From a virus (Duplodnaviria > Caudoviricetes), in IMG/VR virus record IMGVR_UViG_3300018080_000180, positions 368-64,367 of that record: a DNA stretch of 64,000 nucleotides. One strand, written 5' to 3'. Both the position numbers and the translations under genes were made by a program. The notes beneath the pieces are model-generated. The model was not told where the DNA came from. It saw only the letters and a list, made by a program, of their open reading frames with translations, and did no database searches. Positions 2,767-52,443 of the stretch are shown one piece after another (position 1 is the stretch's first letter; each line of letters starts with the position of its first letter).

Positions 2767-3717
2767 TTAAAGGTTTTTCCCGAAGGGGCAAAATTGTTTC
2801 GCATCGCAATAGTCTTCGCAGCGGGTGTTCCTTCCGGGGCGCTGCTCGACCGAGTGGCCCCTCCCGAGCTCCAGCGCGAGAGCCGTTGCGTCTGCTTCGT
2901 CGTTGAACACGCGAACAGCCGTCTTCCTTCCTTCCTTATTGACGGCGTAGGTTGTAGGTTTCGCCCACCGCTCTTCCGGGGTGCAGAACGGAAGCTCTTC
3001 GTCCGCGAGCTTACAGGCATTGAAGTGGACCCGGGAACGCGCAACAAGATATTCCTCGGTCGCTTCTTGCGTCCAGAGAGGAACCTTGATGCACTGCTGT
3101 GATGCTGGAGGGTAGTTCGTGTTGCCGGCCTTGCTCTTCTGAAAATCACGATAAAAAGTATTGATCTTCAGAGCATTCACCGGGAAGCCGAGCAGTCGAA
3201 ACGCAAACGCATAGCAGTTCAGCTGACGTTCCCACTCGGGCTTGGATCCACCGTCACTGTAAACGATGCTCCAGACCGAGGTGACCTTGTGGTCCTCGAC
3301 AACACCGTCGACCCCGTCATAACAGTCGGACTTGCCGGACACGTAATAACTGTTGGGGTCGTAGTTCTCGGTCTCCCAGAACTTTACGTTGCCGTCGACA
3401 GTGTAGAGCCGCTGCTTGACAAGGTCATAGAACCAGCGCTCTTCGCTGAGGCGCTCGGCGTTCGGGTTACCTTTAGCTGCAAGGCGCTCGACCGTGTTGT
3501 GGGCTGCGCTTCCAATGAACAGCCACGTAAACTCGGTGGCATCCTTAGCAATCTTGTCCCGGTGGCGATCGACGAGGATCTTGGGACGGGGGGCGTCGAT
3601 AAGCTGTGTTACCGACAGGACGTTGTCTGGTGCTTTGACCAGATCATACTCTTCGACATACGCCTTGATGGCATCCACCACTGTGGGCGACAGGTTAAAA
3701 TTGTTGGTGATTATCAT
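2767..3717 (-). CDS. PD-(D/E)xK exonuclease (RecB/Cas4-like), ERF partner
   Basis: GSAAH, VSGKSD, EDHKVT, QLNCY, C-terminal CxxYCxxxxFC. Confidence 0.8.
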   Translation of the reverse strand: MIITNNFNLSPTVVDAIKAYVEEYDLVKAPDNVLSVTQLIDAPRPKILVDRHRDKIAKDATEFTWLFIGSAAHNTVERLAAKGNPNAERLSEERWFYDLVKQRLYTVDGNVKFWETENYDPNSYYVSGKSDCYDGVDGVVEDHKVTSVWSIVYSDGGSKPEWERQLNCYAFAFRLLGFPVNALKINTFYRDFQKSKAGNTNYPPASQQCIKVPLWTQEATEEYLVARSRVHFNACKLADEELPFCTPEERWAKPTTYAVNKEGRKTAVRVFNDEADATALALELGRGHSVEQRPGRNTRCEDYCDAKQFCPFGKNL

Positions 3718-3935
3718 TGCTCCACTCCTTTGCGCGAGAGTGTTAAGGGTTTATTTGTGCAATAGGGACATCCCCTCAGCCGCCTCTGTGATCCGCACTT
3801 TTTACAGGTTGTCGCTTCCCAACGATCGGCCATCATGTCGACCATTCGCGGCTGACTCACCTTGTTTTTGGCAGCCAGCTTCTTTACCCGTTTCTGGGTA
3901 TCGATGTCGACTGATACGGTTGTCTGGTTGGCCAT
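3714..3935 (-). CDS. Ribbon-helix-helix-like DNA-binding protein with Zn finger (candidate repressor)
   Basis: TTVSVDIDTQKRVKKLAAKNKVSQPRMVD plus CKKC...CPYC; AAGGAGG SD. Confidence 0.6.
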   Translation of the reverse strand: MANQTTVSVDIDTQKRVKKLAAKNKVSQPRMVDMMADRWEATTCKKCGSQRRLRGCPYCTNKPLTLSRKGVEQ

Positions 3936-4099: not shown

Positions 4100-4129
4100 A
4101 TTATACTTGATTCCCAATTGAGAGTCAAT
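4100..4129 (-). promoter_or_regulatory. Promoter with ATTGA-N3-TCAATTG operator
   Basis: TTGACT-17-TATAAT. Confidence 0.85.
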
Positions 4130-6939: not shown

Positions 6940-6970
6940 ATTATACATTGGTGGTCAATTGATTGTCAAT
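6940..6970 (-). promoter_or_regulatory. Promoter with ATTGA-N3-TCAATTG operator
   Basis: TTGACA-18-TATAAT upstream of helicase. Confidence 0.85.
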
Positions 6971-7186
6971 AGTTTTTTCTGGACAGAAGATGTGCTGCAA
7001 TTCGCCATCGATTATCGTGAACTTCTCACCCTTGGCAATAGGGGTGTCGCAGTTGGCGCACCCCCACTGCTTCGAGGCAACTAAAATCGTCTTGGCTGTC
7101 TTGAAGCGATCAGACACCTCGGCGTGTGTCTTGAAGAGTATTTTTAGCGTATACTCCTCGATATCGATCGCTGTGTGTTTACGCAT
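6941..7186 (-). CDS. Small Zn-finger protein
   Basis: CANC...HIFC; GGAG SD. Confidence 0.6.
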   Translation of the reverse strand: MRKHTAIDIEEYTLKILFKTHAEVSDRFKTAKTILVASKQWGCANCDTPIAKGEKFTIIDGELQHIFCPEKTIDNQLTTNV

Positions 7187-8725: not shown

Positions 8726-8756
8726 ATTATACATTGATTTTCAATTGAAAGTCAAT
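8726..8756 (-). promoter_or_regulatory. Promoter with ATTGA-N3-TCAATTG operator
   Basis: TTGACT-18-TATAAT. Confidence 0.85.
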
Positions 8757-9807: not shown

Positions 9808-10133
9808 TACTGCCCTCCCCTGCTCGCAAAGAAGATGATAACACCAATGACAATCTGGATCACGGTCAACCCAACACCGAGGGCAACGGCAGAAACCTTT
9901 ACCCCTGCCTTCATCTCGTTCTGGCCAATGGCGAGGTGGTTAATGTTGGTTGTCTGGGTGTCTACAGCGGCAAATATCTTGCCTATGCTTTCCTTGACTT
10001 CCACAACTCCCCCCTTGAGGTTTTCCAATTCTACGCTTTTTGCTGCATCGCATTTTCCAAACCTAAGAGCAAGGTCGTTAACCTTTGAACCGAGATTGTT
10101 TAAGTCAGACTCTGTTGCGAATTCGGCCATCAC
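9807..10133 (-). CDS. Holin-like membrane protein
   Basis: Coiled coil plus C-terminal TM helix. Confidence 0.55.
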   Translation of the reverse strand: MMAEFATESDLNNLGSKVNDLALRFGKCDAAKSVELENLKGGVVEVKESIGKIFAAVDTQTTNINHLAIGQNEMKAGVKVSAVALGVGLTVIQIVIGVIIFFASRGGQ

Positions 10134-13100
10134 TGTCCTCTCTTCGATTTAATAACAGCTTCACGGTGCTTCTTCCATAACTTCTTGTACAGCTCCCACT
10201 CTTCGTCAACCTTGACAATGCTTGGATGCTTGCTCCAGTTGGCCTTTTCTTGCGGCGTGAGGTTCTTGTACGCCGCCTCCCTGCGTCTGGCAAACTGGTT
10301 CTGCATGCCTCCAGAGTACAGTGCATTGTACCCAAACTTCAGCTTGCTTGCCGGCAGCTCCTTGGGTTTCTCCAGCAGTCTACCGGAGAAATACTCATTG
10401 ATCTGTTTGACGTTCTCCGAGGGGTCGTCTATACCAGCATTGAACGCCTCGGCCTTGAACGCTTTGCGCCGGTCCTTCGGCAGCTGCTCGTACCAGTTTT
10501 TGAAGATGAGGCGCTCGCGCCAGCTTCCGGGCTTCTTCAGCCGGCTGGTCATGGCACCCTTGAGTGACACGTCTTCCAGAGTCGACTTCGGATACAGGAG
10601 GTTTGCCATCCCCTCTCCCTTGGCAGCCCTGAAGGCCCCCTCGACGGCCCGGATAGCCATGGATGCCGGCAGCCTCGTTGCGATGGCACTTACCTGCGCC
10701 CCGGCCTTAAGCGCCTTCTGGGCGGCTTTCCGGCGCTCTGTGGGCGTCTGAGCCTGAGCAAGATCGGCTACACCACCCATGAACCTGCCGGCGGTTCCGA
10801 ACACCTCGAAGGCCGTGGGGGTCACGTCGAACCCGTAGTCCCTGATAGGCTTCTGGCCCCGCATCTCTCGGATCCGGTTGCGAGCGTTGGCCATCATGGA
10901 GTTAATGCCCTCGCCAACCACCGGGAGGGTTCCGGTAACGCCGTTGACGGCGTACATCATCAGCCCCTCTGGGTCCTGCAGCAGGCGCTTTGGGTTGTAC
11001 CATGCGCCAGTGTCGATCGCGTAGATCCACATCGCTGCGGCCATCTGGGCGAAGAACATCTTCACAGCCATCTTCATCACCTCGTCGGGGGGCGCCGATG
11101 CCGACTTGGCCGCCATCCCGATCATGGCCCACATATTCGCGTTCTGGTTGATCTGGTTCTTGAATGCAGTGAAGGCACCAACGACCCCTCGATCGCGGAA
11201 GGCTTCTGGCAGATTCACCAGCGAGCTCTCAGGCTGTGTCCTGCGGATGAGCATGTCAGCCTCGCGCACTGCCCGGGACTGGTTGCCGTGCTTCTTCATA
11301 CCGTCATCGAACTTGGCCAGCCATATCGACACGACGGCGGCCTCGTCGAACGCCCGTATCCCCGCCATGGAAGCATCCGCCAGCTGGGTCATCGCGGGAC
11401 CGAAGCCAAACGCCTTCTTGACTTCCCGGGATTCCTGCAACTCCCTGAGCGTCCGCTCCACGTTTCCGTTGCGGGTCTTCATGTATTCGCTCAGCCCGTA
11501 GACCATCTTCTGCATGTTCTTCCAGCCACCCGTGGTGTACTGGGCGAACCGCTGGGTCACGAGGCCGGGAGAGACGAAAGGCATCGCGCCCGTCATCGAC
11601 GCGAGCTGCTTGGCCATGACGCGCACGTTGAGCCCGAGGGCATACACGCCGTAGTTCCGGCGAATAAAGTCAGCCCATGTGTTGAGGGCATTACTGTTGA
11701 TATTGGATGGGCGACCAGCAATCATATCCTGATGCCAGCGCCACATCGTCTTGTACGCTGCCTCGCTCCGAGTCTGGATCGCCCGGGAGACAGGGTCGTA
11801 ATCGAGAATGCGCCGTGTTGTGTTGATCGTTTCCTCGAAGGCAATGTAGTGCTCGACGTCCCTCATGTGGGCAAAGACAGTCCGAAAGAAGTCGTAGTCC
11901 CGGAACGCAGCCTCGCTCTTCACACGACCCTTGGTGAACTTACGATCGAGGCCGATCGGCCGAGTGGAGTAGCGCTGCATCAGATCGATCATCACAGGGC
12001 TCTCGGCACGCTTGCGATCGAGACGCATGATCGGGAAGTACCGATCGGACTTCGGCATCTCGACTCCGTATACCTTTTTAAAGACCTCGTTCACCCGGGG
12101 GTAAACGTCGGTGTCGTAGAAGTCAATGAGCCGGTCGACCGCATCCTTCACCTCCTGAGGGAGGGCGTCGGTGATGGTCTGGACAGCATCATCGGTGTAA
12201 CCACTTCCATACAGGTGGCGCAGGTTGTCCTCATTCTGCGAGTTTGCATAAACGAACATGGCCTGATTCGCGCTCAGCTTCCGCTGGTACGGGATCCCGG
12301 TATCCATGTCATACACTGTCACCTCGAAGTCATCGAACTTCTGGTACATCCGGCGCAAATCCAGACCTTTGAAGATCTCGGCAACCTTGTCCTGATGTGC
12401 CTTGGCAGCGATGCTCTCCTCGATGGCCTTCTGGCGGATTGGTTCATACACGAACCGGGACAGCGCTCCGGGTTTCTGTCCGAGCATCTGGAAATTCCCG
12501 GTCGCCCATTCCATAAGCAACTCAGGACGAACCTGCTGCCAGCCAAAGAAGCGGCCGATCTCTCCGAGCGACTTCATCAGGCCCCGGGTCTCATCGTCGA
12601 ATGCCCGGGCAGCCCTGCGCTCGATGGCCGCCTGCGAGGTCACCTTACGGACCCCGGCAACCACCGCCTGACGCTTGGCGTTAACCTGTTTCATCTCACG
12701 ATCGACCTGACGCTTGCGCTCGCTACGGCCAGTAGTGTAAATCAGGCGCATCTCTTCACTCACACGACGCAGCTGGGCGGCCGACATCTGGTCAAGGCGA
12801 GGAGAGGTGTTCTGAATAACGAAGGCCTTCTCCTCCGGAGTCAGCTCGACATCCTCAGGGCCGTTGATCTTGTCGTAGATCCGAACAAACTCAGCTTCGG
12901 CCTCAGTGATCGGATTACCCTGTGCGACCTGCGACTTAATCTGGTCGAGATTCAGGCGCGGCCGAGTATCATCGAATGCATCCATGAGAGCTTCGAGCTC
13001 AGCTGCGGCCTCCGGGGTAAACACCGATGACTTGCGCTTTCCGGCTTTCACTGCATCGATCATGCTGCGATACCGCTTGATCCGATCCTTTGCCTTTTTG

Positions 13101-16100
13101 TAAAGCATGCGCCTGAGGTTGTTCTGCACGCGCTGGTCAATCAGGTCCAGCACCTTGTTGAACATATATGGCGTCTTTACCCTTTTAATAAGGGGGTAGA
13201 TATCCCGAGGGTAACCCACCTGTCGCGCATAAAGAGAAAGGGTCCGTGCGATATCCTCGCGCAGCTCAGCTTTTTTCTCGGCGAGCTCAGCCTTGGTCAT
13301 CTCCCGAAAAGCAATAAGGTATTTATCGATCGCCATGGCTGACCCGGCACGCATTCGCAGCGTTTCCTCGTCCTGCAGGGCACGCAGCCGTGTCCGGGCT
13401 TCCTGTAGGTACTCGTATTCCTCTTTAATACGATACTTCGAAGCAACCAGATCCGCAGGGCGCACCGGGATCCGCTTAACGACAGCGGAGAGTCCACGGC
13501 GCTTCTTCGAGAACGTAAGGCCTGCACCCTTCACTGCCTCGGCTACAGCGTCCTCTCGATTACCGGCGGCTGTACTATACTCAATGAACGGCACTCCGGC
13601 ATTTCTAAGAATCCGGTCAACCATCGGAAAGCGATTATCAGGAACAATAGCGAGCTTCGCTTCCCCGATCATTACAGGGCGCGACATCTTTACTTCAAAG
13701 TAGTGCTTCGGCATCTCCCGAATGAGGTTGGCCATGTCAACGATGTGTTCAACCAGATTGTCAGGAAGCCCCTGAAACCCGATCTCCTGCGCTATCCTGC
13801 GGACATCCTCATTACCACGACCGTTTTCGTCATAGTATCGCGCAACAAGTCCATGCAGCGTGGCCGAAGACTTCTGGGCATACGGCTCGATATCGGTCAT
13901 CAGCTTGCTATGAAGCAGCGACGCAAGTCCTACCCCGGTATATGGCTCCCGCTCCATGCCACCGGCCTCATACCTGCTAATGACGCTCTTCCAGTCACTA
14001 AGGCGTTCGCGGGATCTCCCGGTAAGATACCCATATTTTTGCTCTATCCCCTCCATCTCAGCAGATCGCGGATCCTGCCGGGACATTGCTTCGTGGTGGG
14101 CCTGCAGTGTGGCCGGAACCGTCTCTCCGCGAAGAACCATTTCGCCAACACCATACAGCTCGTCAGCGAGCATCCCAAGCCAGTCACGGTATTCGCCATA
14201 GCGACCGTTCATTAAATAATGCAGCTTCCCGCTGGCCCTTTCGTTTGTTTCGCTTATAAAGAGAGACTGTAATCCAACATCCCCCATGGCAAAATCAAAA
14301 AAGAGATCCCGATCCTCTTCTTTCATTATTTCAGCAGAATCGCGAGAGATTATTCCATCATCTGCAGGAAAAAATTTCTTGACCGCCTCTTCGATTTTTC
14401 GGGCAGTCGCTCTGGCAACCTGTCTGTTCGGCCTGTAAGCAACATCCATAATGCGCCGTGCCGTGTAGGCATCTCCGTTGTAAACGAAGTCGATAGACGG
14501 CTGAACGGTTTCCTGCGGAAATACCAAAGAAATCCCGCCGAACTCCTTCAGCGGACTCTTGGTTGAAGCAATTGCGATAGACACCGCCGGAATCCCGCCG
14601 ATCGAGTTGATGCGTTCGAGGCTTTCCTCGGCAAGGTTGTGAACAATGTAAAGGTCTTTCTGCTTTGACCCGGGCAGCTTCTTTTTCGAAAGCGTCTCCC
14701 GTGTCGGGCGCCCGAGCAACGTCTCGTCATAGACGGCGTAGTTGGTGGTAGCTGGACCATCAGATTCGAATGCGCCGGCAATTCCAACACCAGCCAGAGC
14801 GTCAGATGCGGCGATATTGGATTCGAGGATCCGGGCAACAGTGCGATAAATATCACCACCAGTAACGAAGCCGCCGAGCTGTGCCTTGGTTGCCGAGATA
14901 ATGCTATCATAGGCCTCGGGATCAGGAACCGCCTGCCGGCCAAGATCGATCATCTCCTGAGATTCGGGGTTGTTCCAGTCAAGAAAGTTCCCGTTCTCAA
15001 TGGCCAACTCAGCGGTGTACAGATACGAGGTGCTCTGGACCTGCACACGGTTCTCTTTGATGAGATCTACCAGCTCTTTTAGCTGCTCTTTACGGAAGGG
15101 GTGATCACCCGGGTAGGTCATACCCTTCGCCATCTCATCGATTTCCTCGCCACGCCGCCACGCTCGAACCATGTTGGCAACCCCGATGCTGTCAAACATC
15201 GGCCAACGTCGATTCATCCCGTCAACGGTGAATCTATAGCCACCGAGCTCCTGAGCGTACCATACAGCATTGCCACGGACGTCAGTAACATAGGTGGCCG
15301 CACCCATGGCAGAGATCCCCGAGGCGCGTCCAGCGTTGTTGCGATAGTCGAAGTCGTCGTACTGGGATCCAGACCCGTGATAAACCTTCTTGCTGAAAGC
15401 AAGAACCGGATCGTTGCGGTCAGCTTCAGTGATTTTCGACTCGTACCATGTATTACCCTGCTCATCAGTAACAGGAGTAACATCTGAGCGAAGCCTCCTG
15501 AAAGCTTTCAATGCACCTGACTTATAATTACGAAGTACCTCTTGCGCAGACTTGTGGATCTTTGTTAAATCATAACCACCCCCTATCGGGGTGTCGCCAG
15601 TACGAAACCTTACATGAAAGGTCTGAATTGGAAACGGCTCATTTTCCGAGACCCCCATAATGTACCTTGCGTTGTTTACAAAGTCAGCCACCTGCTTTTT
15701 CTTTTGATCTGAAAGCTGCCTGTATTTATCCGCAAACCTTGAACTGGTTGTCCACACAAGGAAGTGCTGGTCACCCTCATCTATTCCACTTTTGTCAACA
15801 GACAGGATAAGGTCGCGCCTGCCACTCCTCCTGTGCTCAAGAGTTGCCCCGGGCTTCGCCTTTTTCAGGATCTCATCGCTGCTTTGATCTGAGCCACCTA
15901 TTGCAAAAAGTTCATGCTGCGCACGAACGTCTGCTTCTTTTTTTACGAACCCCTCGACAAGAGCCAACGTCTCCTCGGTTGGCATCCGAATCGTCTCGTA
16001 CCCACGCACCGCAGCCACCTTGATCGCCTCGCGCACCATGCGCTGGGGCCAGAGCTTGTGATAGGCTTCCGTTTGAGTGCGGAGGATAGACGGAAACGTC

Positions 16101-19100
16101 TTGAACCTTTTCGGGACCATCTGGTACAGCTGTTGAACAACACCATATTTATAATTCAGATCGGCGGGGGCTGATTCTGTGGCAGCCTGATACAGGCCGG
16201 CGTGCATTATTTCTTTGTACCAGTCGGTTTTATAAAAATCATGAAAGTGTCCGGTATGTGGACGAAAGTCAAGAGAGTCCAAAACACGACGAGCGGTCTC
16301 TTTTTCGTTTAATCCAATCATGTCGTCTTCTGACATCGACCCTACTTCAGCGTCGATTGCATCGATAATCTTTTGTGGCTCCCCCTCGCCGACAGGCTTT
16401 TCTTCGCGTTCCTCTTCGGACCAGTCAACAAACTCATTAATGGCTTCAACATCATAATGCTGAAACAGATCTGACTGGATCTCCATAATGTTGAATGCAT
16501 TGCCGATTGGAGCAACCCGCAGGTGGCCAAACAGACCGACCCTGTCGCTGGTGTCTTCTGCGGCGGCTTCCGCCTCATCGATCCACGTATACGCCGCCTC
16601 CTTGGACCCAAAGACGCCAAGAACCTTCTCCTTGTTCTTTTTGTCAACAACCGCATAACTCGGAGGCGCCCAATCCTGAACCTTGAACCCTTCTACTATT
16701 TCATACTCAGGAAAAAGCTCTTTTGACAGCTCCATGTACTGGTCTGTCCAATGTCCAGCCTGCCCATGATAATACGGAGCATTGAAAATGATCGACTCGC
16801 CTTTCGCCAAGCCGGAGTACCCAAGCTCGGGGACGCCATACTTTACTTCGTACTCTCCACCAGTGGAACTGATGCGAGTAAGCGGGATAAGCTCGGTATT
16901 TACCTCGCGCTTCAGCTGTTCAAGATCGATTTTCTTCTCACCCTTGTGATACTTGTCAAGCACAAAGCTGACGACATCGGCCTCGATCGGTTTCACTTCC
17001 TTGCTTTTCAGCAGACTGTCCATCTGACCACGACTGACCATATCCTTGCCAACAAGCTCCCGACGCAAGAATACAGAGGTGGTAAGGAACGGCTTGGTGT
17101 CCTCTACCACAACCTTTTTCGAAAGTGTTGCTATTTTTCCGGCTCTTCGGTCTGCGTCATATCGCTGGCGGATTGCTTCTGCTTGAGGGCCGTATCGATT
17201 AACGATGGACTCAGTGAGTCTGCCGAGGACTTTTTCATTGTACTGATCGTCGCCCCTTCCCGATATATCGGGGCGTCCTTCGGATACGAGCCGTGAAATG
17301 TAGCTGGAGCCATCTGGGTTCTCCTTCCAGTCATTGTCGAAATATCCGCCGTCACTGTTGAACCTCCACGTATCAACCTTCTCAACCGGATACGCATTGT
17401 CGATCACAGGAGCGATCGCCCTGTGGAAGTCAGCATTCGACAGTTCTCCGAACGTAAAGTTTATGATCCGGGCGCCGGATGAGTGCCCGATAATTCCAAT
17501 GCTGTTAGCGTACTTCGGCATGGCAGCCATGACCGAGTGCTGCAATGCCAGTGACTGCTCTTCATCGAACGGTCTGCCGGTCAGAACCTCGATGCCGTTG
17601 TTATTGGCAGCATCGACGCCCCCGTAGATCGGGTAGTGGTATGCCACGGCGTCCTGCTTATAGATATAGCCGAATGCGTTTGCAGCTGCATCGAGCTTCG
17701 CGGCGACGGCCTTGTCGATCTGCTTAGATCCCTCGGTAACACCGAGGAGTGCGAGCGCCTGCTGTGATGGATTGCTCGCCAACTCCCATGCGCCGGCCGT
17801 GGTGAACTGGGTTGCCAGTGGAAGCTCCAGCATGTCGAAGATCGCGTTGGTTCCCCGTGGAGTCTGGACCATCTGCATGAGGTCGCGATGAAGTCGCGCC
17901 TTGTCCTCATAAGCCATCTTGGTCATCCATGCGTACTCGCCGCTGGTTGTCGGGATGGTCTCGTAGGAGAAAAACGACAGGCGCTCGCCGATACGCCGTG
18001 CAAAGTCGTCAAGCTCAAGCGTATTGGGATCAGGAAACTCCATTCGCTCGTGCATACGCTTTAAGATTTTGATCCACGAATCATTATCGTAGTCAATCTC
18101 CACACCATTGCGCACTATCTTGGTAAGCTCGCCCGGAGCAAAGCTGCGAATAACATCGTTGTACTTGTCATTCCACGCCTGCCGGAACGAGCACCAGATC
18201 GATGCCTGTAGCTGGTCGTTCGAAAGGTTGAGACGCTTCGCCAGCATTCGCATCTCTTTCTGGAGACGGCGCTGAAGCGTGGCGCTTTGAGAGCGCTGCG
18301 GAGTAACACCGAACGCTCGATAAATCCATGTGTCCATGACGGCATCGTAGTCGCCCGGGAAGTCGCTTGACAGGTAGCTGATGAGAGTCTGGTCAAACGG
18401 GGTTACCTTGGGTCCGGTAGCCACCTCGGCAGCCGACGCGCCACGAATCAGCTGCTTGACCTTGTTGCTAACACTGCGATTCTTGCCAAACATTCTGCCA
18501 GCCAAAGCTCGCTCGAAATCCTGAACATCCATGGCGCTGGTCTCGCCAAGAAACTCGATAACATCAAAAACGTAGTCAGTGTTTTTTGCCACTGAAGTCT
18601 GGGGGCTGGTGACAGCTGCCACGTTCATGTACAGCTCTGCCTTGACGGGATCGCCGCCGGCAAGGTACATGGCAGCACGGCTGCTGGAACGATACCAGTT
18701 CTTGAAATCCTTCCCCGCCTCGGCATAGCCGGCAAGATCCTGCACGAGCTTACGCATCTGGCTTGGGTTCCCGATAATCACCCCGGCGCTTTCGAAAATT
18801 TCTTGCTCGCGGGTAGCCTTACGAGGTTTTGACAGTGTGGGTTTCTGCTTGGCTATCTTGGCAACTCTTTCGGCGATACCCGGGCGCTGCTTCGACATGG
18901 CTTCGAGGATCTGCCGACGCAGCTCGATCGCGCCCTTGGGGTCGAGGTAGCGGGAGTGTTCCTTCGGTGCTTTCTTTACTGCAGCAATGATATCACCGAC
19001 CATCCGCAGGATCTTCCTGAGGACCTTCGGGGCCTTGTCAGCAAGAGTATAGAAGACGCCCCGGGCGGTCCCGATGTCTCCGGAGATATCGGCCAGCAGC

Positions 19101-22100
19101 TCAGCAATCACGTAGCTTGACACAGGATAACCCTTATAGGTCGTCATATCTGGGTCGTTCACCCTCAGTTCGGCGAGGTCCTCTGCCCCATAGTTCGCAA
19201 GACGTTCAAGCAAGTACTCGCGGTAACCCGCAGCATCCATTGCCTCAAACAGGGAGAAGAGGAGGTTGTTATAGTCTGACTTGGAATCGTGCTGGATCCG
19301 GTGCAGCCCTTCGTGCAGGAACGTGGTAAGGAGGGGGAGATCCCCCTCGGTGTTGAGCAGCACCACCCCGGGCATGTCCTCCGGGGCGTAGCCGTTGATA
19401 TCGAGGCCTCCACGCCCATCCTTGAACCACAGGATCGTGGTCCCCATGTCAGTCGCAAGAGCCTCAATAGCCTTCTGGTACGCTGTTTCTGACTTTGCGG
19501 GGACGGCGCCTGCCTGAGCGTATCTGCCGCCGAACTTGCGGAGGCCGGTGACTGCTTTATCAAGCAGCCTGACCTTCTTATCCTGATCTGTAACTACAGA
19601 AGGCGCCTTTTTTGGCGGAGCTTTCTCTTCTGTTAATCGTCGCTGTCCTGCTTCAGTGGCTTTTCCAGCTTCGCCATCTCTTTTCTGTACTGCAGGCCGT
19701 TGATCTCGCCGTTTCGATAGCGTTTTATCAGGTTGAACTCTTTTAGGGAATTCCCGCTCAGCCTCAGCTTGACTTTTTGCTGGTTCACGTTTTTCCTCCA
19801 GTTCTCGCGCCGACACAAGGCCGGCTTGTTCATAAATGGGTCCGAGGTCTTCTCCTTCAACCCCACTTATATTATACCGTTCCGCCAATTGATTGTCAAT
19901 GTAAATCGCATTGCGTCGTTTCGACTTGCCTTCCAGCATGGCTTGATCTGCACCAGCAAGATCGGCCCCGACCCCTATGGTTGCCCCGAGCGGAACCCGC
20001 ATAACGGTGCCGTTTTTAGCCGTTATCGGAACAGTTATCGAATTGAGTTTCTGTTGCATTTGCTGCAGCTTTGCGGGAAGTTCGGCCATCTCTTCGTCTG
20101 TCAGTTCAGCAATGCCGGCACCTTCATCGCCATGGATGTGGTAATAATTAATCCCGACCTCTTCTGCAGCCTCAGCAAGAGCCCTCTGCCCCTTCTTCAT
20201 GATGTAGTCGCCAGCATTATGGCCTTCAATGGTCTCGTCATTCCACGGCTTGAATTTATCAAGGTCATAAAAAATGTTTACACGAGTTTTGCCTTCTTCG
20301 ACAGGTTTCTGCATTGCGCTCTGAAAGTGGGGGCCGCTCTTGAGCTTGGTAAGCCCATGCCGTTTCGATCTTGATGCGTAGCGAAGTGCCTTGTCACGAG
20401 GGAGCTCTGGATCCTCCTCTTGAAGCTCATCTGCAACAGACTCCAGAGTTTCTGGCTGAACCTCTGCTCCGATGTCCTCCATTATCTTGACTCTGCCCTG
20501 AGCCTTCCCGGGCGTAATCGGAGGCGGCTCAAAACTCTTTGGGGCTATCTCAAAAATCTCCTCGTCGATAACTTCCAAAGACTCTATTCCGGACTCCGCT
20601 GTCGGAAGCTGCCCTTGCTTCTCCGTTGGCTGAACCGGCGCCTCAGTGGGCGCTCGCGGCTCCTCAGCGGCAGCTTCCGATGGCGTAGCGGGTTTGGACA
20701 GTGTAGGGGGCTTGCGGCCCTCCTCGGCCTCCTGAGCGGCCAGAGCCTCGATCTGGGCTACGGTCTCGGGATCGTCCGATACAACCTCCTCAATGGTCAG
20801 ATCTGGGCCTACAGGGGCAGCTGGCGCCTCTCCGGGTGCTGTGGGGGCCTCTCCGGGCGCTGTGGGGGCTACAGGGGTAGCTTCTTGCCTCAGACGCTCC
20901 TGCTCGGCCCTCTCGGTGGCTGCCTCGCGCTGAGCGGCCTCTATATCAATAGTCTGCGCTGCATCGCTCATTACGGCCTTCTGGGCACTCTCCTGAGCCT
21001 TGTCGAGCACCCCGAGTCCCTTCAGCGTCTTGTGGACGACCTTTACGCCGGCAGCTTTGGCCTGATCAGAGATCTTCTCGACGCCTGCCCGGACGCCAGC
21101 TCCGCCCATACCAAGCAGGAACATAGATGGGAAGGCTGTCGCGTAGGCGGCGGCTCCCTCAACCATGGCATTCTTCAGCTCTTCGAGAATCTTGATCTTC
21201 TTGCCCTCTGACATTTTGCCAAGGACCGGAGCGATCGTCCCGGTGAGCCACTCCTGAAACATCTCCTCACGGGCTTCGTGGTGGGCACCTTCTGCACGCT
21301 TGGCCAGACCTGCAATGGATCCTGATACAAACCGAGCGAACCGTCCGGTACCAATGCTTTTGCCCATAGCTGTCCGGATTGCGTTCAGGGTCTCCTTACT
21401 GAAGACACCCTTGTTCTGCATGTCCTCAACTTTGGCGTATCCAATACCAATCGGCAGCGCAAAAACTCGCTGCATATCCCTGCTGACACCAGCCTCCTCT
21501 AAGGCCCGAGCAGTGCTGCCTGCGCCTTCGAGTGTCCACATCAGGCCGCCGGCCCCGGGAACCACCATGTTCAGGGCGGTACCTGCCGCCATCCCGGGGA
21601 GGATCCGGATGGTAGACGAGATAATATTCTTGTACTGATCCTGATCTGTCGCCTCTGTAATCTCGTCGGTCAGAGCCATCGCCTCATCGTAGGCCTCATC
21701 ATCAAGAGAATAGAGCGCAAGGCCAGTGGAAATGCTGGCCGACAAGTCTGCAACCCCAGCCAGAAAAGAAGCAGTGGGGGTACTGAAAAACCCGGGCTTG
21801 ACATTTTGTAGGTAATCCACAAAGTCTTCGGCCTCTGCCTTGCGCAGCCATCCCGGAGACAGCTCCTCCATAACATCTTCGGCGTATTTGACGTAGTCCT
21901 TTGCCGCTTCCAGCTCCTGTTTCACCTGAGTGTCGCGTCCTGTTTCGCGGGCGATCGCTTCGCGTCCGGGCTCCAGCTCCTGAAGGGCTGCCTCCCGAGC
22001 CTTGAACGCACGATCCCAGCGACCTGCCGCAGCGGTCAATCCAGTGACATGCTTTGCAACCGTCTTGCCGACCTCACCAAGAAACCCTTCGCGCCCCTCG

Positions 22101-22927
22101 ATCGGTGTGACCCCAGCCTCTGGCATTTCCAACCGTCGGTCTGCTGGGGGAGCCTGTTGCATAACGTCGACAGCCGGGGCCTCCACTGCTTCGGTTGGAG
22201 TGTACTCTTCTTCCCTCAAAAGAGCCTTACGCTCATCCTGAAGCATGCGAATCTGCTCTCGCTTCTGCTCGTCAGTTAACTCAACGGGCGCCTCCCCCGC
22301 CTCTCCTGTGATAAGCTCCTTTTCAGTGCGGGAAAGCTCCTGCTGCCTCTTGCTCCACATCTCGCGTGTCTGCTCGTAGGACTTGCGAACATCAAGACCT
22401 TTTGGCTTCGGCTCAAGCGATTTGCGTATCTCTTTGATCTGCTCTTCGATCTCGGCAAGGCGCTGCTTCTTTGATTTCTCCTCGGCACGGCGCCCACGTT
22501 CAGCCTGCAAGGACTGGCGAATAAATCCCTCTGGCTTCTCCTCGGACTCGCGCTTCAAATAACCAGTAAACCCAAGAATATTTTCGGCTATGCCGGCCAT
22601 TGGACCTATGACAGGAACACCCCTTAAAAGAGCTCCGCCAAAACCAGCACCAGCCTCGCGGCGCTCACCCGGGCTTCCTTCCACCGTAGGAGGGGTAACT
22701 ATCTCGGCCTCGGGATCCTGCATCGTCCTGCCACCGGGAGGGGCGGCTGGCTGTGGTGTCGGCTCAGGTTCTGGCTGCTGCTGGGCTGCTCTCGCATCGT
22801 CGGAGAGGACTTCGTCGAGCGACAGGCCTATGTCTTCCGACGGCGGGGTATAGGAAGCCCGTGCCTCGTCGGAAAGAAATTCGTCAATATTCAGGTCGAG
22901 GTTTTGGTAGCTGCTGCGTGGGGCCAT
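10130..22927 (-). CDS. Giant polyvalent virion/ejection protein (4265 aa)
   Basis: GGDEF-like (DLDKFK..ND..GH..GD, HGDEG), zincin HEGLH, DUF7178-like, EIQSD domain, ART-like YHGS, helical C-terminus like internal virion proteins. Confidence 0.9.
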   Translation of the reverse strand: MAPRSSYQNLDLNIDEFLSDEARASYTPPSEDIGLSLDEVLSDDARAAQQQPEPEPTPQPAAPPGGRTMQDPEAEIVTPPTVEGSPGERREAGAGFGGALLRGVPVIGPMAGIAENILGFTGYLKRESEEKPEGFIRQSLQAERGRRAEEKSKKQRLAEIEEQIKEIRKSLEPKPKGLDVRKSYEQTREMWSKRQQELSRTEKELITGEAGEAPVELTDEQKREQIRMLQDERKALLREEEYTPTEAVEAPAVDVMQQAPPADRRLEMPEAGVTPIEGREGFLGEVGKTVAKHVTGLTAAAGRWDRAFKAREAALQELEPGREAIARETGRDTQVKQELEAAKDYVKYAEDVMEELSPGWLRKAEAEDFVDYLQNVKPGFFSTPTASFLAGVADLSASISTGLALYSLDDEAYDEAMALTDEITEATDQDQYKNIISSTIRILPGMAAGTALNMVVPGAGGLMWTLEGAGSTARALEEAGVSRDMQRVFALPIGIGYAKVEDMQNKGVFSKETLNAIRTAMGKSIGTGRFARFVSGSIAGLAKRAEGAHHEAREEMFQEWLTGTIAPVLGKMSEGKKIKILEELKNAMVEGAAAYATAFPSMFLLGMGGAGVRAGVEKISDQAKAAGVKVVHKTLKGLGVLDKAQESAQKAVMSDAAQTIDIEAAQREAATERAEQERLRQEATPVAPTAPGEAPTAPGEAPAAPVGPDLTIEEVVSDDPETVAQIEALAAQEAEEGRKPPTLSKPATPSEAAAEEPRAPTEAPVQPTEKQGQLPTAESGIESLEVIDEEIFEIAPKSFEPPPITPGKAQGRVKIMEDIGAEVQPETLESVADELQEEDPELPRDKALRYASRSKRHGLTKLKSGPHFQSAMQKPVEEGKTRVNIFYDLDKFKPWNDETIEGHNAGDYIMKKGQRALAEAAEEVGINYYHIHGDEGAGIAELTDEEMAELPAKLQQMQQKLNSITVPITAKNGTVMRVPLGATIGVGADLAGADQAMLEGKSKRRNAIYIDNQLAERYNISGVEGEDLGPIYEQAGLVSARELEEKREPAKSQAEAEREFPKRVQPDKTLSKRRDQRPAVQKRDGEAGKATEAGQRRLTEEKAPPKKAPSVVTDQDKKVRLLDKAVTGLRKFGGRYAQAGAVPAKSETAYQKAIEALATDMGTTILWFKDGRGGLDINGYAPEDMPGVVLLNTEGDLPLLTTFLHEGLHRIQHDSKSDYNNLLFSLFEAMDAAGYREYLLERLANYGAEDLAELRVNDPDMTTYKGYPVSSYVIAELLADISGDIGTARGVFYTLADKAPKVLRKILRMVGDIIAAVKKAPKEHSRYLDPKGAIELRRQILEAMSKQRPGIAERVAKIAKQKPTLSKPRKATREQEIFESAGVIIGNPSQMRKLVQDLAGYAEAGKDFKNWYRSSSRAAMYLAGGDPVKAELYMNVAAVTSPQTSVAKNTDYVFDVIEFLGETSAMDVQDFERALAGRMFGKNRSVSNKVKQLIRGASAAEVATGPKVTPFDQTLISYLSSDFPGDYDAVMDTWIYRAFGVTPQRSQSATLQRRLQKEMRMLAKRLNLSNDQLQASIWCSFRQAWNDKYNDVIRSFAPGELTKIVRNGVEIDYDNDSWIKILKRMHERMEFPDPNTLELDDFARRIGERLSFFSYETIPTTSGEYAWMTKMAYEDKARLHRDLMQMVQTPRGTNAIFDMLELPLATQFTTAGAWELASNPSQQALALLGVTEGSKQIDKAVAAKLDAAANAFGYIYKQDAVAYHYPIYGGVDAANNNGIEVLTGRPFDEEQSLALQHSVMAAMPKYANSIGIIGHSSGARIINFTFGELSNADFHRAIAPVIDNAYPVEKVDTWRFNSDGGYFDNDWKENPDGSSYISRLVSEGRPDISGRGDDQYNEKVLGRLTESIVNRYGPQAEAIRQRYDADRRAGKIATLSKKVVVEDTKPFLTTSVFLRRELVGKDMVSRGQMDSLLKSKEVKPIEADVVSFVLDKYHKGEKKIDLEQLKREVNTELIPLTRISSTGGEYEVKYGVPELGYSGLAKGESIIFNAPYYHGQAGHWTDQYMELSKELFPEYEIVEGFKVQDWAPPSYAVVDKKNKEKVLGVFGSKEAAYTWIDEAEAAAEDTSDRVGLFGHLRVAPIGNAFNIMEIQSDLFQHYDVEAINEFVDWSEEEREEKPVGEGEPQKIIDAIDAEVGSMSEDDMIGLNEKETARRVLDSLDFRPHTGHFHDFYKTDWYKEIMHAGLYQAATESAPADLNYKYGVVQQLYQMVPKRFKTFPSILRTQTEAYHKLWPQRMVREAIKVAAVRGYETIRMPTEETLALVEGFVKKEADVRAQHELFAIGGSDQSSDEILKKAKPGATLEHRRSGRRDLILSVDKSGIDEGDQHFLVWTTSSRFADKYRQLSDQKKKQVADFVNNARYIMGVSENEPFPIQTFHVRFRTGDTPIGGGYDLTKIHKSAQEVLRNYKSGALKAFRRLRSDVTPVTDEQGNTWYESKITEADRNDPVLAFSKKVYHGSGSQYDDFDYRNNAGRASGISAMGAATYVTDVRGNAVWYAQELGGYRFTVDGMNRRWPMFDSIGVANMVRAWRRGEEIDEMAKGMTYPGDHPFRKEQLKELVDLIKENRVQVQSTSYLYTAELAIENGNFLDWNNPESQEMIDLGRQAVPDPEAYDSIISATKAQLGGFVTGGDIYRTVARILESNIAASDALAGVGIAGAFESDGPATTNYAVYDETLLGRPTRETLSKKKLPGSKQKDLYIVHNLAEESLERINSIGGIPAVSIAIASTKSPLKEFGGISLVFPQETVQPSIDFVYNGDAYTARRIMDVAYRPNRQVARATARKIEEAVKKFFPADDGIISRDSAEIMKEEDRDLFFDFAMGDVGLQSLFISETNERASGKLHYLMNGRYGEYRDWLGMLADELYGVGEMVLRGETVPATLQAHHEAMSRQDPRSAEMEGIEQKYGYLTGRSRERLSDWKSVISRYEAGGMEREPYTGVGLASLLHSKLMTDIEPYAQKSSATLHGLVARYYDENGRGNEDVRRIAQEIGFQGLPDNLVEHIVDMANLIREMPKHYFEVKMSRPVMIGEAKLAIVPDNRFPMVDRILRNAGVPFIEYSTAAGNREDAVAEAVKGAGLTFSKKRRGLSAVVKRIPVRPADLVASKYRIKEEYEYLQEARTRLRALQDEETLRMRAGSAMAIDKYLIAFREMTKAELAEKKAELREDIARTLSLYARQVGYPRDIYPLIKRVKTPYMFNKVLDLIDQRVQNNLRRMLYKKAKDRIKRYRSMIDAVKAGKRKSSVFTPEAAAELEALMDAFDDTRPRLNLDQIKSQVAQGNPITEAEAEFVRIYDKINGPEDVELTPEEKAFVIQNTSPRLDQMSAAQLRRVSEEMRLIYTTGRSERKRQVDREMKQVNAKRQAVVAGVRKVTSQAAIERRAARAFDDETRGLMKSLGEIGRFFGWQQVRPELLMEWATGNFQMLGQKPGALSRFVYEPIRQKAIEESIAAKAHQDKVAEIFKGLDLRRMYQKFDDFEVTVYDMDTGIPYQRKLSANQAMFVYANSQNEDNLRHLYGSGYTDDAVQTITDALPQEVKDAVDRLIDFYDTDVYPRVNEVFKKVYGVEMPKSDRYFPIMRLDRKRAESPVMIDLMQRYSTRPIGLDRKFTKGRVKSEAAFRDYDFFRTVFAHMRDVEHYIAFEETINTTRRILDYDPVSRAIQTRSEAAYKTMWRWHQDMIAGRPSNINSNALNTWADFIRRNYGVYALGLNVRVMAKQLASMTGAMPFVSPGLVTQRFAQYTTGGWKNMQKMVYGLSEYMKTRNGNVERTLRELQESREVKKAFGFGPAMTQLADASMAGIRAFDEAAVVSIWLAKFDDGMKKHGNQSRAVREADMLIRRTQPESSLVNLPEAFRDRGVVGAFTAFKNQINQNANMWAMIGMAAKSASAPPDEVMKMAVKMFFAQMAAAMWIYAIDTGAWYNPKRLLQDPEGLMMYAVNGVTGTLPVVGEGINSMMANARNRIREMRGQKPIRDYGFDVTPTAFEVFGTAGRFMGGVADLAQAQTPTERRKAAQKALKAGAQVSAIATRLPASMAIRAVEGAFRAAKGEGMANLLYPKSTLEDVSLKGAMTSRLKKPGSWRERLIFKNWYEQLPKDRRKAFKAEAFNAGIDDPSENVKQINEYFSGRLLEKPKELPASKLKFGYNALYSGGMQNQFARRREAAYKNLTPQEKANWSKHPSIVKVDEEWELYKKLWKKHREAVIKSKRGQ
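19633..19788 (-). CDS. Nested +1-frame small basic protein (51 aa) inside the giant gene
   Basis: GGAGG 6 nt before GTG; consensus promoter ~80 nt upstream. Confidence 0.55.
   Translation of the reverse strand: MNQQKVKLRLSGNSLKEFNLIKRYRNGEINGLQYRKEMAKLEKPLKQDSDD
19871..19900 (-). promoter_or_regulatory. Intragenic consensus promoter with the same operator
   Basis: TTGACA-17-TATAAT; ATTGACAATCAATTG identical to 6956-6970. Confidence 0.8.
20815..20875 (-). repeat. 21-bp coding tandem repeat (APTAPGE) in linker
   Basis: APTAPGEAPTAPGEAPAAP. Confidence 0.6.
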
Positions 22928-42901: not shown

Positions 42902-43144
42902 TTAGCTCTGGATCTGCGGCTTTGAGCTGCCGGCCGCAGGGAAGTTGTTCAGGTTCTCACCCTTGCCTGCGAGGTTCACGCCTGCGCGTGCCCGGCTCGC
43001 CGGCCCGGATGTCTGCTTGCCACCCGAGGGTGGGGACTTGCTGCCAGTTGCCGTGTTGCAAGGCTCGCCACCGGCACCCGCCGAAGCACTCCCCGAACCC
43101 GACACAGGCATGTTCTTCTTCTCGAACGTGGACTTACCGTTCAT
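42902..43144 (-). CDS. Small G/S-rich hypothetical protein
   Basis: AGGAGG SD, ATGA coupling. Confidence 0.6.
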   Translation of the reverse strand: MNGKSTFEKKNMPVSGSGSASAGAGGEPCNTATGSKSPPSGGKQTSGPASRARAGVNLAGKGENLNNFPAAGSSKPQIQS

Positions 43145-45240
43145 ACGGCTGCCTCCTGTGGTTGAGTTTGCATTTTTTCGATAAAGTTACCACCCTGAAG
43201 CATATTGTCACCCTCCTGCTGGGGAGTGCCTGCTCCTATTTCTGCCTGTGATGGACTGCCTGCTGAAAATTGCTGCGGGATCTGCTCCTGACCACTTCCG
43301 CCCATGGCGCTCTGCTGGCCCTCTTCCTGAGCTGCCTGCCCAAGACCAATGAGCTTGTTGCGCAACATGAGCACGTTGATCGACGTCTGGTAGCCAGCCT
43401 CCATCTTCAGTAGACCAACAGCCTTGCGTATCTCTTCTTTCTGCTCATCAGGAATCTCTTGGGTTTCAAGAATGGCGCCGGTCATGATGAGACGCAGCAG
43501 CCGGTCCTGAGGGTCGGTAAGCACCTGCAGGGTCTCGGCATAATTTGACCGCAGCTCTGTTCTCAGGTTGATGCCACTGGTCGAAGGAACCAGCACAACC
43601 TTCATCATTGGAAGAATACTGATATCATCGAGAACAAAGGTGTTTCCATACGAGTCGACAACCCGCTCGTTGATCACAAAGCCGTTGCTGTTCCCAGCGC
43701 CGGCAAACTCACGAGGAATCCCTGCGTAGGTGATCTTCGACTGGCGAGCATAGGCCAGAGCCTTCTCGCGCTTGTGGGTCTCCCAGAGCTTGGCGTACCA
43801 TTTCTGCCCCACGAGACCCATCTCGACCTTGTGACGGTACAGGATCCCGGTCTCCTGATTTGACTCTGTACGGGCGTCCATGGCCGCAGGAACGAGCGAC
43901 AGGCGGTCTGCGAGGTCATACCGCCGGCCGATCTGATTGACCAGATCAGGACGTGCGCTTGCCCCGGGAAGCTCGATAATTCCACCGTTCGGCAGATCCT
44001 TGGTCGAACCCTCGTCGAGCCAGATACGAGCTGCGGGGTCATTCCACCCCTGCTCGATCTCCAGCTCCTTCTGGGAGTCACCGCCAGTCAGGGCACGATC
44101 GAGAGCAAAGGCACCCTTTGCCGACCGGGCCTGAATGTCATCAACGTACATCTCGCCGCGATTGATCGACAGCTGAATGTCATACAGTCTATCAATGACA
44201 CCCTGATACTGGGAATGAAACTTGAGCCCGAGCGGATAGATGTTGCAGTTGTTGGTCTGAACCTTGTCCTTGCCCTTGGCGAGGAAAAGCTCCGAGTCGA
44301 TGGTGGGAACAATCGCTTCGTAAAACTTGATCACCCTCTTACGCTTGGTCCACGTAATGTCAAAATTCGGATCAAGTCCTACCTGCTGAATATACCGCTG
44401 CTTCGCCTCGCGGTCCTGCTCCGAACCGTTTTTGAATCCGGTGTCAGGAAAATTGCAGTGGTTCTTGATGTCGTATTCCCAGTCTTCGACTTCCTCTTTT
44501 GTAAAGTGGAAGCCGAGAACGCGATGGCGGTCCCCCCACTTGTGCTCAGTCTCTCGATAGTTCGGGATGTTGGTCGTATTCTGACCGTAATCAACGCCCT
44601 CAACCTCTTCGCGCTCTTTGAGCTGCTTCAGATAAGATGAGGTGTGTGGGAATTTCTCGGCTATCTCGTAGGCAAAGAGCATCTCTTCTTCGAAATAGCA
44701 CTTGATGTCGTTGATGTCAGAGGTTTTCCATGCAGGGTCAAGGAAGATGCAGAGCGGGTTGGGTGACTCCCACGCGCAGTTACCGAAGTCACTGAAGCGA
44801 TCGGATATCATCATGCGCTCGTAGCCGACCTGTATGAAGCAGTCTCGAAGCGCCAGCTGCTCCGGAGTTTCCCAGCCAAGATTGTACTTGTCAGAATAGT
44901 ACATATCCTGCAGCTTCAGAGCGAGGCTGTCGAGCTTGCCTATCATAGGCATGTACTTGATGTCGAACGGATTACTCAGGAAGGATCCGCATAAGGTCTC
45001 AACCTTCCATGCAGATATGTTGAAGGTCGGAGGACGGCGCCCCTGATTGCGCAGCTTCTCGACAGCATACGATGGCCACTGGCCAAAGTTGATCCCCCAG
45101 TACATACGGGAGTTGCGGATAAGGCGCTTCATATCCGGCTCCCAGTAATCCTGAAACCGCTCAAACTGGCGCTGAATAAATCCAGCCCTGCGAAGGCGAG
45201 TCTCGTCCCGGGGAGATGCTATGCTTTTATACGCTGGCAT
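43141..45240 (-). CDS. Portal protein (P22-like)
   Basis: 699 aa; GQW...RPPTFNI, DP.WK..D..D, Q-rich tail. Confidence 0.8.
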   Translation of the reverse strand: MPAYKSIASPRDETRLRRAGFIQRQFERFQDYWEPDMKRLIRNSRMYWGINFGQWPSYAVEKLRNQGRRPPTFNISAWKVETLCGSFLSNPFDIKYMPMIGKLDSLALKLQDMYYSDKYNLGWETPEQLALRDCFIQVGYERMMISDRFSDFGNCAWESPNPLCIFLDPAWKTSDINDIKCYFEEEMLFAYEIAEKFPHTSSYLKQLKEREEVEGVDYGQNTTNIPNYRETEHKWGDRHRVLGFHFTKEEVEDWEYDIKNHCNFPDTGFKNGSEQDREAKQRYIQQVGLDPNFDITWTKRKRVIKFYEAIVPTIDSELFLAKGKDKVQTNNCNIYPLGLKFHSQYQGVIDRLYDIQLSINRGEMYVDDIQARSAKGAFALDRALTGGDSQKELEIEQGWNDPAARIWLDEGSTKDLPNGGIIELPGASARPDLVNQIGRRYDLADRLSLVPAAMDARTESNQETGILYRHKVEMGLVGQKWYAKLWETHKREKALAYARQSKITYAGIPREFAGAGNSNGFVINERVVDSYGNTFVLDDISILPMMKVVLVPSTSGINLRTELRSNYAETLQVLTDPQDRLLRLIMTGAILETQEIPDEQKEEIRKAVGLLKMEAGYQTSINVLMLRNKLIGLGQAAQEEGQQSAMGGSGQEQIPQQFSAGSPSQAEIGAGTPQQEGDNMLQGGNFIEKMQTQPQEAAV

Positions 45241-51800: not shown

Positions 51801-52443
51801 TCGCTCCCTTCAGATCAGAAAACATCTTCTGCAGAAACCCGGGATCCTTCTGCTCGATGTCATCAAGGTCGAGCTTCAGCCCGTGGTTCTGCCAGAGTAT
51901 CGCACCCTTCTTCTCGATGAAGCCGCAGCCAAGCAGCAGCGCACGCCCCTCAGGGGAGCTCTGCTTCCAGCTGGAGACGATATACCGCACGTTGCCGTTG
52001 AATAAGGTCTTGGCAACATTCACCAGCTTCTTCATGCGGCCCTCTTTGCGATTCTTCGGGCGGGTCCACATATTGTGGATCTCCAGCACACAGTACGGCT
52101 TGATCGTCTTCGGCCGAACGAATACGGCGTTAAGGAACAGGGAGGCAACGATCGTCCCGTTGATGTAGTCGGTAATGTACAGTGGATCGCCCTGATGCGG
52201 CTCGATGAAGATGCCATTCTGGCTGGCGAGGGCCTTCTGGGTACTGGCCTGAATGAGCGGACACTTGTCTGGAAACCCGCCCTTGCTGTTGGCTTTCGTG
52301 ATGATGTCCTCGCCACCGTCGTCTGCCTTGGGGTGGCCACACACCAGCTTGTCGCTTGGCATCTCTGTGTAGTGCTCACATTTGCGACACTCGGTAATGA
52401 GCTTGTCGCCGTCGACTACCTTTACTTTGCCATGTACTCCCAT
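51778..52443 (-). CDS. Cys-rich domain + GNAT-like acetyltransferase
   Basis: CRKCEH..CGHP..CPL; EIHNMWTRPKNRKEGRM...GF. Confidence 0.55.
   Translation of the reverse strand: MGVHGKVKVVDGDKLITECRKCEHYTEMPSDKLVCGHPKADDGGEDIITKANSKGGFPDKCPLIQASTQKALASQNGIFIEPHQGDPLYITDYINGTIVASLFLNAVFVRPKTIKPYCVLEIHNMWTRPKNRKEGRMKKLVNVAKTLFNGNVRYIVSSWKQSSPEGRALLLGCGFIEKKGAILWQNHGLKLDLDDIEQKDPGFLQKMFSDLKGAIEREVKG

Follow-up and report, generated by a model that had tools for sequence, protein, structure and literature searches.

Small genes that lie out of frame inside larger genes and are transcribed from internal promoters are classic in small phages, as in phiX174, in which gene B is contained in gene A and gene E in gene D. 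Here, we analyze a locus of comparable layout in a virus of the Caudoviricetes (Duplodnaviria), present in a stretch of 64,000 nucleotides (nt), hereafter the window, whose coordinates are used throughout. The window spans positions 368 to 64,367 of the IMG/VR record IMGVR_UViG_3300018080_000180, i.e., almost the whole of that record, which is 64,367 bp long, carries direct terminal repeats and has a completeness estimate of 100%. At 19900-19633 on its minus strand, a promoter sequence of the sigma-70 type (P4) and a short open reading frame (ORF) in the +1 frame are embedded in the gene of a giant protein of 4265 amino acids (aa), the frame of which is called frame 0. Judging from the sequence, we lean toward the reading that they are a functional early promoter and a small gene whose DNA also encodes a linker between domains of the giant protein. 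As in phiX174, the small gene would lie wholly within a larger gene, in another frame, and its promoter would be made of codons of the host gene; however, the phiX174-type cases belong to tiny single-stranded DNA genomes under strong size pressure, whereas this is a 64-kb double-stranded DNA phage with a host gene of 12.8 kb and an overlap located in a disordered linker.

A second class of autonomous phage units is represented by the morons, cassettes of promoter, gene and terminator inserted in late operons, between genes. The locus is similar to them in having its own promoter and a small gene among late and virion genes, predicted to be transcribed independently. A moron in the strict sense is not supported, since no terminator was found and the unit lies inside a gene, in another frame.

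The closest formal analog of the origin that we propose below is the model of the polymerase spacer and S gene of hepatitis B virus (HBV). In that model, as described in a review, a flexible linker of a multidomain protein is proposed to have been overprinted on an older short gene between coding units, and the older of the two frames was identified by a sliding analysis of codon usage (PMC8227390). The difference is that HBV is an animal virus without a separate sigma-70 promoter logic, and that the present case is a single genome without a phylogeny. The host gene itself recalls the polyvalent proteins of phages and conjugative elements, for which processing into units by a peptidase domain has been proposed (Iyer et al., 2017, PMC5512222): it encodes a giant multidomain protein beside virion genes, with a GGDEF domain, a zincin-like peptidase and a PBECR-type nuclease. 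Unlike what is found here, the main text of PMC5512222 contains neither of the words “promoter” and “overlapping”, and the passages of it considered here describe neither an embedded gene nor a recurrent TLSK-like motif; furthermore, in a full-text literature search, “polyvalent protein” and “internal promoter” occurred together in no paper among the matches listed. Lastly, in the Rpn intragenic antitoxins, as described in the portion of the preprint considered here (bioRxiv 10.1101/2023.05.02.539157), a large gene harbors the coding sequence of a small product that modulates the large protein; there, however, the product is the in-frame C-terminal domain, whereas here it would be out of frame and an interaction is not implied.

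A predicted promoter inside the giant gene

The giant ORF occupies 10130..22927 of the minus strand, on which terminase, portal and tail genes lie upstream of it, and its amino acids 866-1006 (19910..20332, minus strand) match the Pfam profile of the GGDEF domain (PF00990; E-value 2.8e-6; profile positions 13-160 of 161). The original prediction had placed a promoter directly after this domain, spelled by the codons of the peptide IDNQLAERYN. In fact, TTGACA-17-TATAAT starts three codons past the Pfam match, at 19899-19871 of the minus strand, with the –35 box TTGACA at 19899-19894 and, 17 nt after it, the –10 box TATAAT at 19876-19871. This sequence, P4, agrees with the sigma-70 consensus in 12 of 12 positions, has a 17-nt spacer and is oriented on the same strand as the downstream genes. 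Its occurrence exceeds chance: perfect matches to TTGACA-N16-18-TATAAT are found twice in the 64 kb, both strands included, for an expectation of 0.01, and none of 100 shuffled sequences gave at least two. The other perfect copy is the helicase promoter (6969-6940), and the 15-mer said to be common to the two promoters, ATTGACAATCAATTG, is identical at 19900-19886 and 6970-6956. In P4 (19886..19900, minus strand) this 15-mer holds the –35 box together with a 13-bp palindrome, ATTGA-N3-TCAAT (19900-19888). Of all the real in-frame 12-codon windows tested, the one occupied by P4 scores lowest on synonymous choice and, by this measure, its codons are dictated by the nucleotide sequence rather than by the protein. 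P4 is, with good probability, a real promoter of predicted activity, from which transcription, judging from the spacing, would start near G19864.

P4 belongs to a family. Sites with at least 11 of the 12 sigma-70 consensus positions are four in the window when both strands are scanned (at 19899, 8755, 6969 and 4128); all four lie on the coding strand, and each has ATTGACnnTCAATTG upstream of a perfect TATAAT. The spacer sequences differ among the four promoters, and therefore it is functional elements that are shared, not a duplicated block. The other three members precede helicase and recombination genes. P1 (TTGACT-18-TATAAT; 8726..8756, minus strand) is found after a terminator-like hairpin and T-run and before the gene of a 303-aa protein, P2 (TTGACA-18-TATAAT; 6940..6970, minus strand) is found before the helicase gene, and P3 (TTGACT-17-TATAAT; 4100..4129, minus strand) before a small ORF with ribbon-helix-helix (RHH)-like and zinc-ribbon features and the genes of the exonuclease, Erf, NinB-like protein and SSB.

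The palindrome ATTGA-N3-TCAAT, of which the window contains five exact copies for 0.11 expected, overlaps the –35 box like an operator element. P1 carries two such palindromes in tandem, 11 bp apart; the second copy, 11 bp downstream, is exact in P1, has one mismatch in P2 and two in P3 (read by eye in P3), and is missing from P4, where only ATTG is left (by eye). The tandem 13-bp palindromes of these three intergenic promoters (8733-8756, 6947-6970 and 4117-4129) have an 11-bp spacing and a common central CAATTG and, lying over the –35 box and spacer, look like a cooperative operator pair. The first ORF after P3 (3714-3935, minus strand) encodes 73 aa with a C-terminal CxxC...CxxC zinc ribbon and an RHH-like N-terminus, for which the matches to Pfam RHH_1 (E-value 0.25) and to a PHROG of Arc-like repressors (E-value 0.24) are both below significance; its product is a candidate binder of the palindromes. 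As a separate observation, the –10 box of P2 (6940-6945, minus strand) contains the TAA stop codon of an upstream 81-aa ORF (7186..6941), so that the end of a gene and a promoter overlap.

The nested frame and its codon usage

Downstream of P4, the +1 frame is open for 77 codons from stop to stop (19633..19866, minus strand, ending with TAA at 19635-19633) and is closed by TAA at both sides. A Shine-Dalgarno sequence followed by a GTG codon opening a 51-aa ORF had been predicted in it, and both are present: GGAGG (19795..19799, minus strand) precedes by 6 nt the GTG at 19788, and the frame runs from there to the TAA at 19635-19633. The candidate starts are this GTG (51 aa, isoelectric point 9.8), ATG 19833 (66 aa) and GTG 19866 (77 aa). 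The true start may be ATG 19833, giving 66 aa, for which the AAGGAG 18 nt away is too far. The same GGAGG-6-start spacing is found at the genes starting at 9807, 8693, 7186 and 6914 of this phage. The proposal of a co-regulated nested gene is thus supported by the promoter family, by the Shine-Dalgarno spacing of real genes and by the codon usage of both frames, without being proven by them.

The switch of codon usage between frames over the nested ORF is the strongest in the genome. A sliding codon log-likelihood scan along the giant gene favored frame 0 in 414 of 422 windows, and six of the eight exceptions are consecutive, at 19867-19717, and favor the +1 frame; in the GGDEF segment, frame 0 is the native one. 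Among the 150 ORFs of at least 50 codons that are nested in 28 genes in an alternative frame of the same strand, the nested ORF ranks first by codon score, with +0.33 log-likelihood units per codon for a mean of –0.37 and a standard deviation of 0.14. Over the ORF, third codon positions have a GC content of 0.77 in the +1 frame, compared with 0.30 in frame 0 and 0.63 for the genome. Because the charged linker itself could enrich G and C at the first positions of frame 0, the test was redone on synonymous choice alone. Frame 0 over the ORF scored –0.378, below all of the 1311 real windows of 77 codons (mean 0.126, standard deviation 0.098), and the +1 frame scored 0.060, corresponding to the 26th percentile of the real windows and to the top 1.3% of 2622 alternative-frame windows. 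In frame 0, lysine is encoded over the nested ORF by AAA seven times and by AAG never, whereas AAG makes up 77% of the lysine codons of the genome. The codon usage thus identifies the +1 frame as the native coding frame of this segment.

Open alternative frames are common, as the 150 cases of at least 50 codons indicate, and GGAGG is frequent, with 116 copies on the minus strand, so that a promoter look-alike next to an open alternative frame in a purine-rich linker might be thought a matter of chance. This we find hardly credible for a perfect promoter expected 0.01 times and identical over a 15-mer to another promoter, with an ORF ranking first of 150 and a frame 0 scoring below all 1311 real windows.

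The native usage of the +1 frame, together with the runs of A that flank the region, could also be read as a frame artifact or a compensated double frameshift, by which the +1 peptide would be, or would recently have been, in frame with the giant protein, or as programmed frameshifting leading to a truncated GGDEF product. All of these are very improbable. An independent 48-kb contig of the same sample, from what is probably the source run, agrees with the window at every base of 17000-22927, without indels and at a depth of 17.6; assembly error is not the cause of the pattern, although a contig of the same sample checks the assembly and not the biology. Contigs of two other runs match parts of the giant gene perfectly, but all of these matches are outside 19772-20167 and are silent on the promoter. 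Furthermore, TAA codons bound the +1 frame at either end, no canonical slippery site was seen on reading the sequence, and frame 0 contains in the overlap the recurrent peptide TLSKR (see below), the chance of which in a stretch of 90 aa is about 1e-3 when estimated from residue frequencies.

Two other ORFs stand out in the same ranking. The second by codon score (+0.29 per codon), another instance of this type of overlap, is a lysine-rich ORF of 56 aa with an ATG start and native codon usage at 50534-50704 (minus strand), in the 3′ tail of the ORF 50547-51314 (minus strand); the last 50 codons or so of this upstream 255-aa ORF overlap it in another frame, and the coding signal of the 255-aa ORF fades near 50740. 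The third (–0.06 per codon) is a +1-frame ORF at 17133-17403 (minus strand), of 90 codons from stop to stop, in which a GGAGG-7-GTG at 17355 would give 74 aa; no promoter was seen there.

The giant protein and its linker in frame 0

The giant protein shows the traits of a polyvalent protein, i.e., unrelated effector domains, virion-gene neighbors and a zincin-like peptidase motif. Besides GGDEF, it includes PBECR5 at aa 2755-2858 (Pfam, E-value 4.3e-18) and the zincin motif HEGLH at aa 1205, which is a motif only, without a profile match. Where the GGDEF signature is expected, at aa ∼925-935 (∼20125-20155 of the window, minus strand), HGDEG is read by eye, so that the active site of the cyclase may be degenerate.

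The nested ORF had been described as lying in a low-complexity linker, and frame 0 is indeed charged and hydrophilic there, with a D/E/K/R content of 42% vs. 28% for the whole giant protein and a hydropathy within the lowest 1.6% of 85-aa windows. Linkers of this protein share a short motif, [TA][LF]SK[KPR], present at aa 742, 1069, 1364, 1934, 2510, 2745 and 3138 as TLSKP, TLSKR, TLSKP, TLSKK, AFSKK, TLSKK and TFSKK, respectively. All seven are in linkers, 0.05 are expected, the maximum in 2000 shuffles was two, and none is found in 11,706 aa of other genes. The codons of the motif vary from site to site, and conservation is therefore at the peptide level. The motifs split the giant protein into units of 744, 327, 295, 570, 576, 235, 393 and 1125 aa, and the sites at 1069 and 1364 flank the unit with the zincin motif HEGLH, of about aa 1072-1366, an arrangement that fits the processing of polyvalent proteins by a peptidase domain as proposed in PMC5512222. 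The TLSK-like motifs are likely to be polyprotein processing sites at which the giant protein would be cleaved.

One of these motifs falls within the overlap, where the 15 bases at 19709..19723 (minus strand) encode TLSKR (aa 1069-1073) in frame 0 and KRYRN(G), the start of a YRNGEING turn motif, in the +1 frame. In this core, exactly where frame 0 needs S and K, the +1 codons are TAT and CGA, both of them minor (CGA makes up 6% of the Arg codons). Both frames thus appear to be constrained at the overlap, suggesting that frame 0 is functional there too.

It had also been suggested that P4 gives an internal transcript for the downstream domains of the giant protein. More generally, P4 could be real and the ORF incidental, the promoter serving to boost transcription of the last 9.7 kb of the giant gene and of the genes after it, or to produce a C-terminal isoform; as no terminator follows, its transcript could in principle reach the terminator-like hairpin near 8790-8765. 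We consider this quite improbable, and the suggestion of an internal transcript is not supported. No frame-0 start with a usable Shine-Dalgarno sequence follows for about 500 nt; the first with any Shine-Dalgarno-like match, GTG 19366, has a poor spacer of 11 nt and, as the first ones in general, is already inside the zincin domain. Besides, an incidental ORF leaves the coding-type usage of the +1 frame and the abnormal usage of frame 0 unexplained.

As for the rest of the genome, almost all of the long ORFs are on the minus strand of the window, and the order of transcription is terminase (54464..52422), portal (45240..43141), tail genes, the 4265-aa ORF, a terminator-like hairpin and an early-type block. 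The latter comprises the 303-aa protein, the helicase, an exonuclease, an Erf-like annealing protein, a NinB-like protein and SSB, and the hairpin with its T-run, located by eye near 8790-8765, separates it from the giant ORF. The relatives of the terminase are at most 44% identical, and therefore the phage is an orphan. Rfam gave no match in 19000-20500.

The small protein and the proposed origin of the overlap

The product of the nested ORF is predicted by AlphaFold2 from the single sequence as a coil followed by two helices, confident at residues 12-25 and 31-42, with a predicted local distance difference test score (pLDDT) of 76.5. The only candidate relatives came from a seed-based scan of IMG/VR, in which one of 25 seed matches was confirmed: a free-standing ORF of 60 aa (L013:5950-6132) in a row of small same-strand genes, which together with 10 further database clusters (67-97% identity) makes up a family of 11 clusters (P0005-like, alignment A1). 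The invariant core of this family is LRAY[RK][NK]GE[IL]NG[ML]xYR, and the nested ORF shares YRNGEING(L/M)xYR with the L013 ORF, including the pattern Y-x-x-G-E-x-N-G-x-x-Y-R between two helices. A profile comparison by hhalign gives a probability of 93.5% over 27 columns, the similarity having first been found through an 8-residue seed, and in the AlphaFold models of both proteins two helices flank an NGEIN loop (pLDDT of 91 for the family model and of 76.5 for that of the nested ORF). A further scan with alignment A1 returned only the L013 contig again, and fold searches with both models, of the nested ORF and of the family, gave only generic helical hairpins. No match was found in a metagenome scan with the nested ORF (592 seed matches, none confirmed), in a tblastn search of GenBank phages (best E-value 3), in which collection the P0005 family protein has no match either, or, as a paralog, within the window. 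True homology of the nested ORF to the L013 family has, on the sequences and models compared, about even odds, and our verdict does not rest on it. A ribbon-helix-helix repressor was also considered as the nature of the small protein and set aside: no RHH profile matches it, the fold matches listed include no RHH chains, the model of the possibly related family is a simple hairpin of two helices, and the ORF at 3935..3714 is a better RHH candidate.

Several points weigh against a small gene at this locus. The 77-aa ORF has no convincing homolog among 1.84 billion representative proteins, where two weak matches (E-values 1.6e-5 and 1.6e-4), both short, are to repeat proteins, and nothing usable was found in Pfam, PHROGs, a PDB sequence search or the ESM Atlas. 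The similarity to L013 is not significant by itself over 617 (25 + 592) seed matches in two collections, and 14 of 5000 shuffles of the flanks that keep the seed score as well as the L013 match (p = 0.003). Nor does the giant-gene region have relatives in GenBank phages (megablast) or in IMG/VR (scans with aa 850-1300 and aa 1110-1600); metagenome contigs gave 310 seed matches, none confirmed, and two protein word searches, at near and at shorter lengths, returned only the query itself or nothing. Furthermore, the pairing of GGAGG with a start is not significant alone, as four such pairings occur within the giant gene, and the start is not clear-cut, as the 26 codons preceding GTG 19788 are coding-like in the +1 frame as well (97th percentile of alternative-frame windows). 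Finally, no intrinsic terminator is found after the nested ORF, where the local fold has a z of –1.09.

If the promoter and the small gene are functional, as we favor, the host RNA polymerase would start near 19864 early in infection, together with P1-P3, and ribosomes would load at GGAGG, start at GTG 19788 or possibly at ATG 19833, and end at the TAA at 19633, giving a basic helix-loop-helix protein of 51-66 aa with an isoelectric point of about 10. The remainder of the P4 transcript would not be translated, because no usable frame-0 start follows, and would probably be terminated or degraded (polarity). Late in infection, the same bases would be translated in frame 0, from the transcript of the structural operon, into a disordered linker. 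When codon usage is taken as the criterion of which frame is ancestral, as in the review cited above for the HBV model (PMC8227390), the +1 frame would be the older and frame 0 the overprinted one. The linker most likely originated from a fusion of two virion-protein ORFs over a promoter and small gene that already lay between them, which would have joined a protein ending with GGDEF to a remainder led by the peptidase. The starting state of such a fusion may be seen in P2, where the upstream ORF ends with the TAA of the –10 box. As for its function, our best guess is that the small protein is an early regulatory or host-takeover protein acting independently of the giant protein; the original suggestion of an inhibitor or partner of an injected domain is a conjecture from the position of the ORF.

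The same history leaves room for another outcome, in which the promoter and the ORF are a recent relic of an intergenic unit swallowed by a young gene fusion, the protein being no longer made or needed. Compatible with it are the codon usage, which marks the +1 frame as older and frame 0 as overprinted, the upstream ORF ending inside the –10 box of P2, from which a one-base shift could fuse genes, the nested ORF being without a secure homolog, and P4 being without the second palindrome carried by P1-P3. However, all of the elements are perfect (the promoter matches the consensus in 12 of 12 positions, GGAGG lies 6 nt before the start and the ORF is open), and the fact that TLSKR was acquired or kept in frame 0 at the cost of minor codons in the +1 frame suggests a long co-adaptation; a relic therefore seems unlikely to us.

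A more elaborate proposal builds on the dual-coded core and is possible, though doubtful. Here the locus would be a dual-coding module, in which the 15 bases spell both the TLSKR processing site of an injected polyprotein and the conserved KRYRN-GEING turn of a small protein expressed early, the disordered linker being overprinted on an older small gene and fusing two virion proteins. TLSKR would then be the N-terminal boundary of a self-releasing zincin peptidase unit, and the small protein might regulate the palindromic operator of the four promoters, or the flanking GGDEF or peptidase domain. Such a module would be the first gene found nested in that of a polyvalent protein, and would point to a way in which these giants grow.

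The nested unit is credible, although it rests on a single genome, and for a single genome it is unusually clean, as it combines a perfect promoter of a defined family with a frame switch in codon usage. Genes within genes always escape gene callers, so that small early genes inside giant phage ORFs are invisible to current catalogs, and the recurrent TLSK-like motif predicts where such polyproteins are cut. If a functional promoter and small gene are indeed embedded here, the same DNA can be used at different times of infection, for an early protein and for a virion protein made late. Independent genes can then reside in the linkers between the domains of polyvalent proteins, and readthrough of transcription units lying in between may be one way in which these giant proteins grow.

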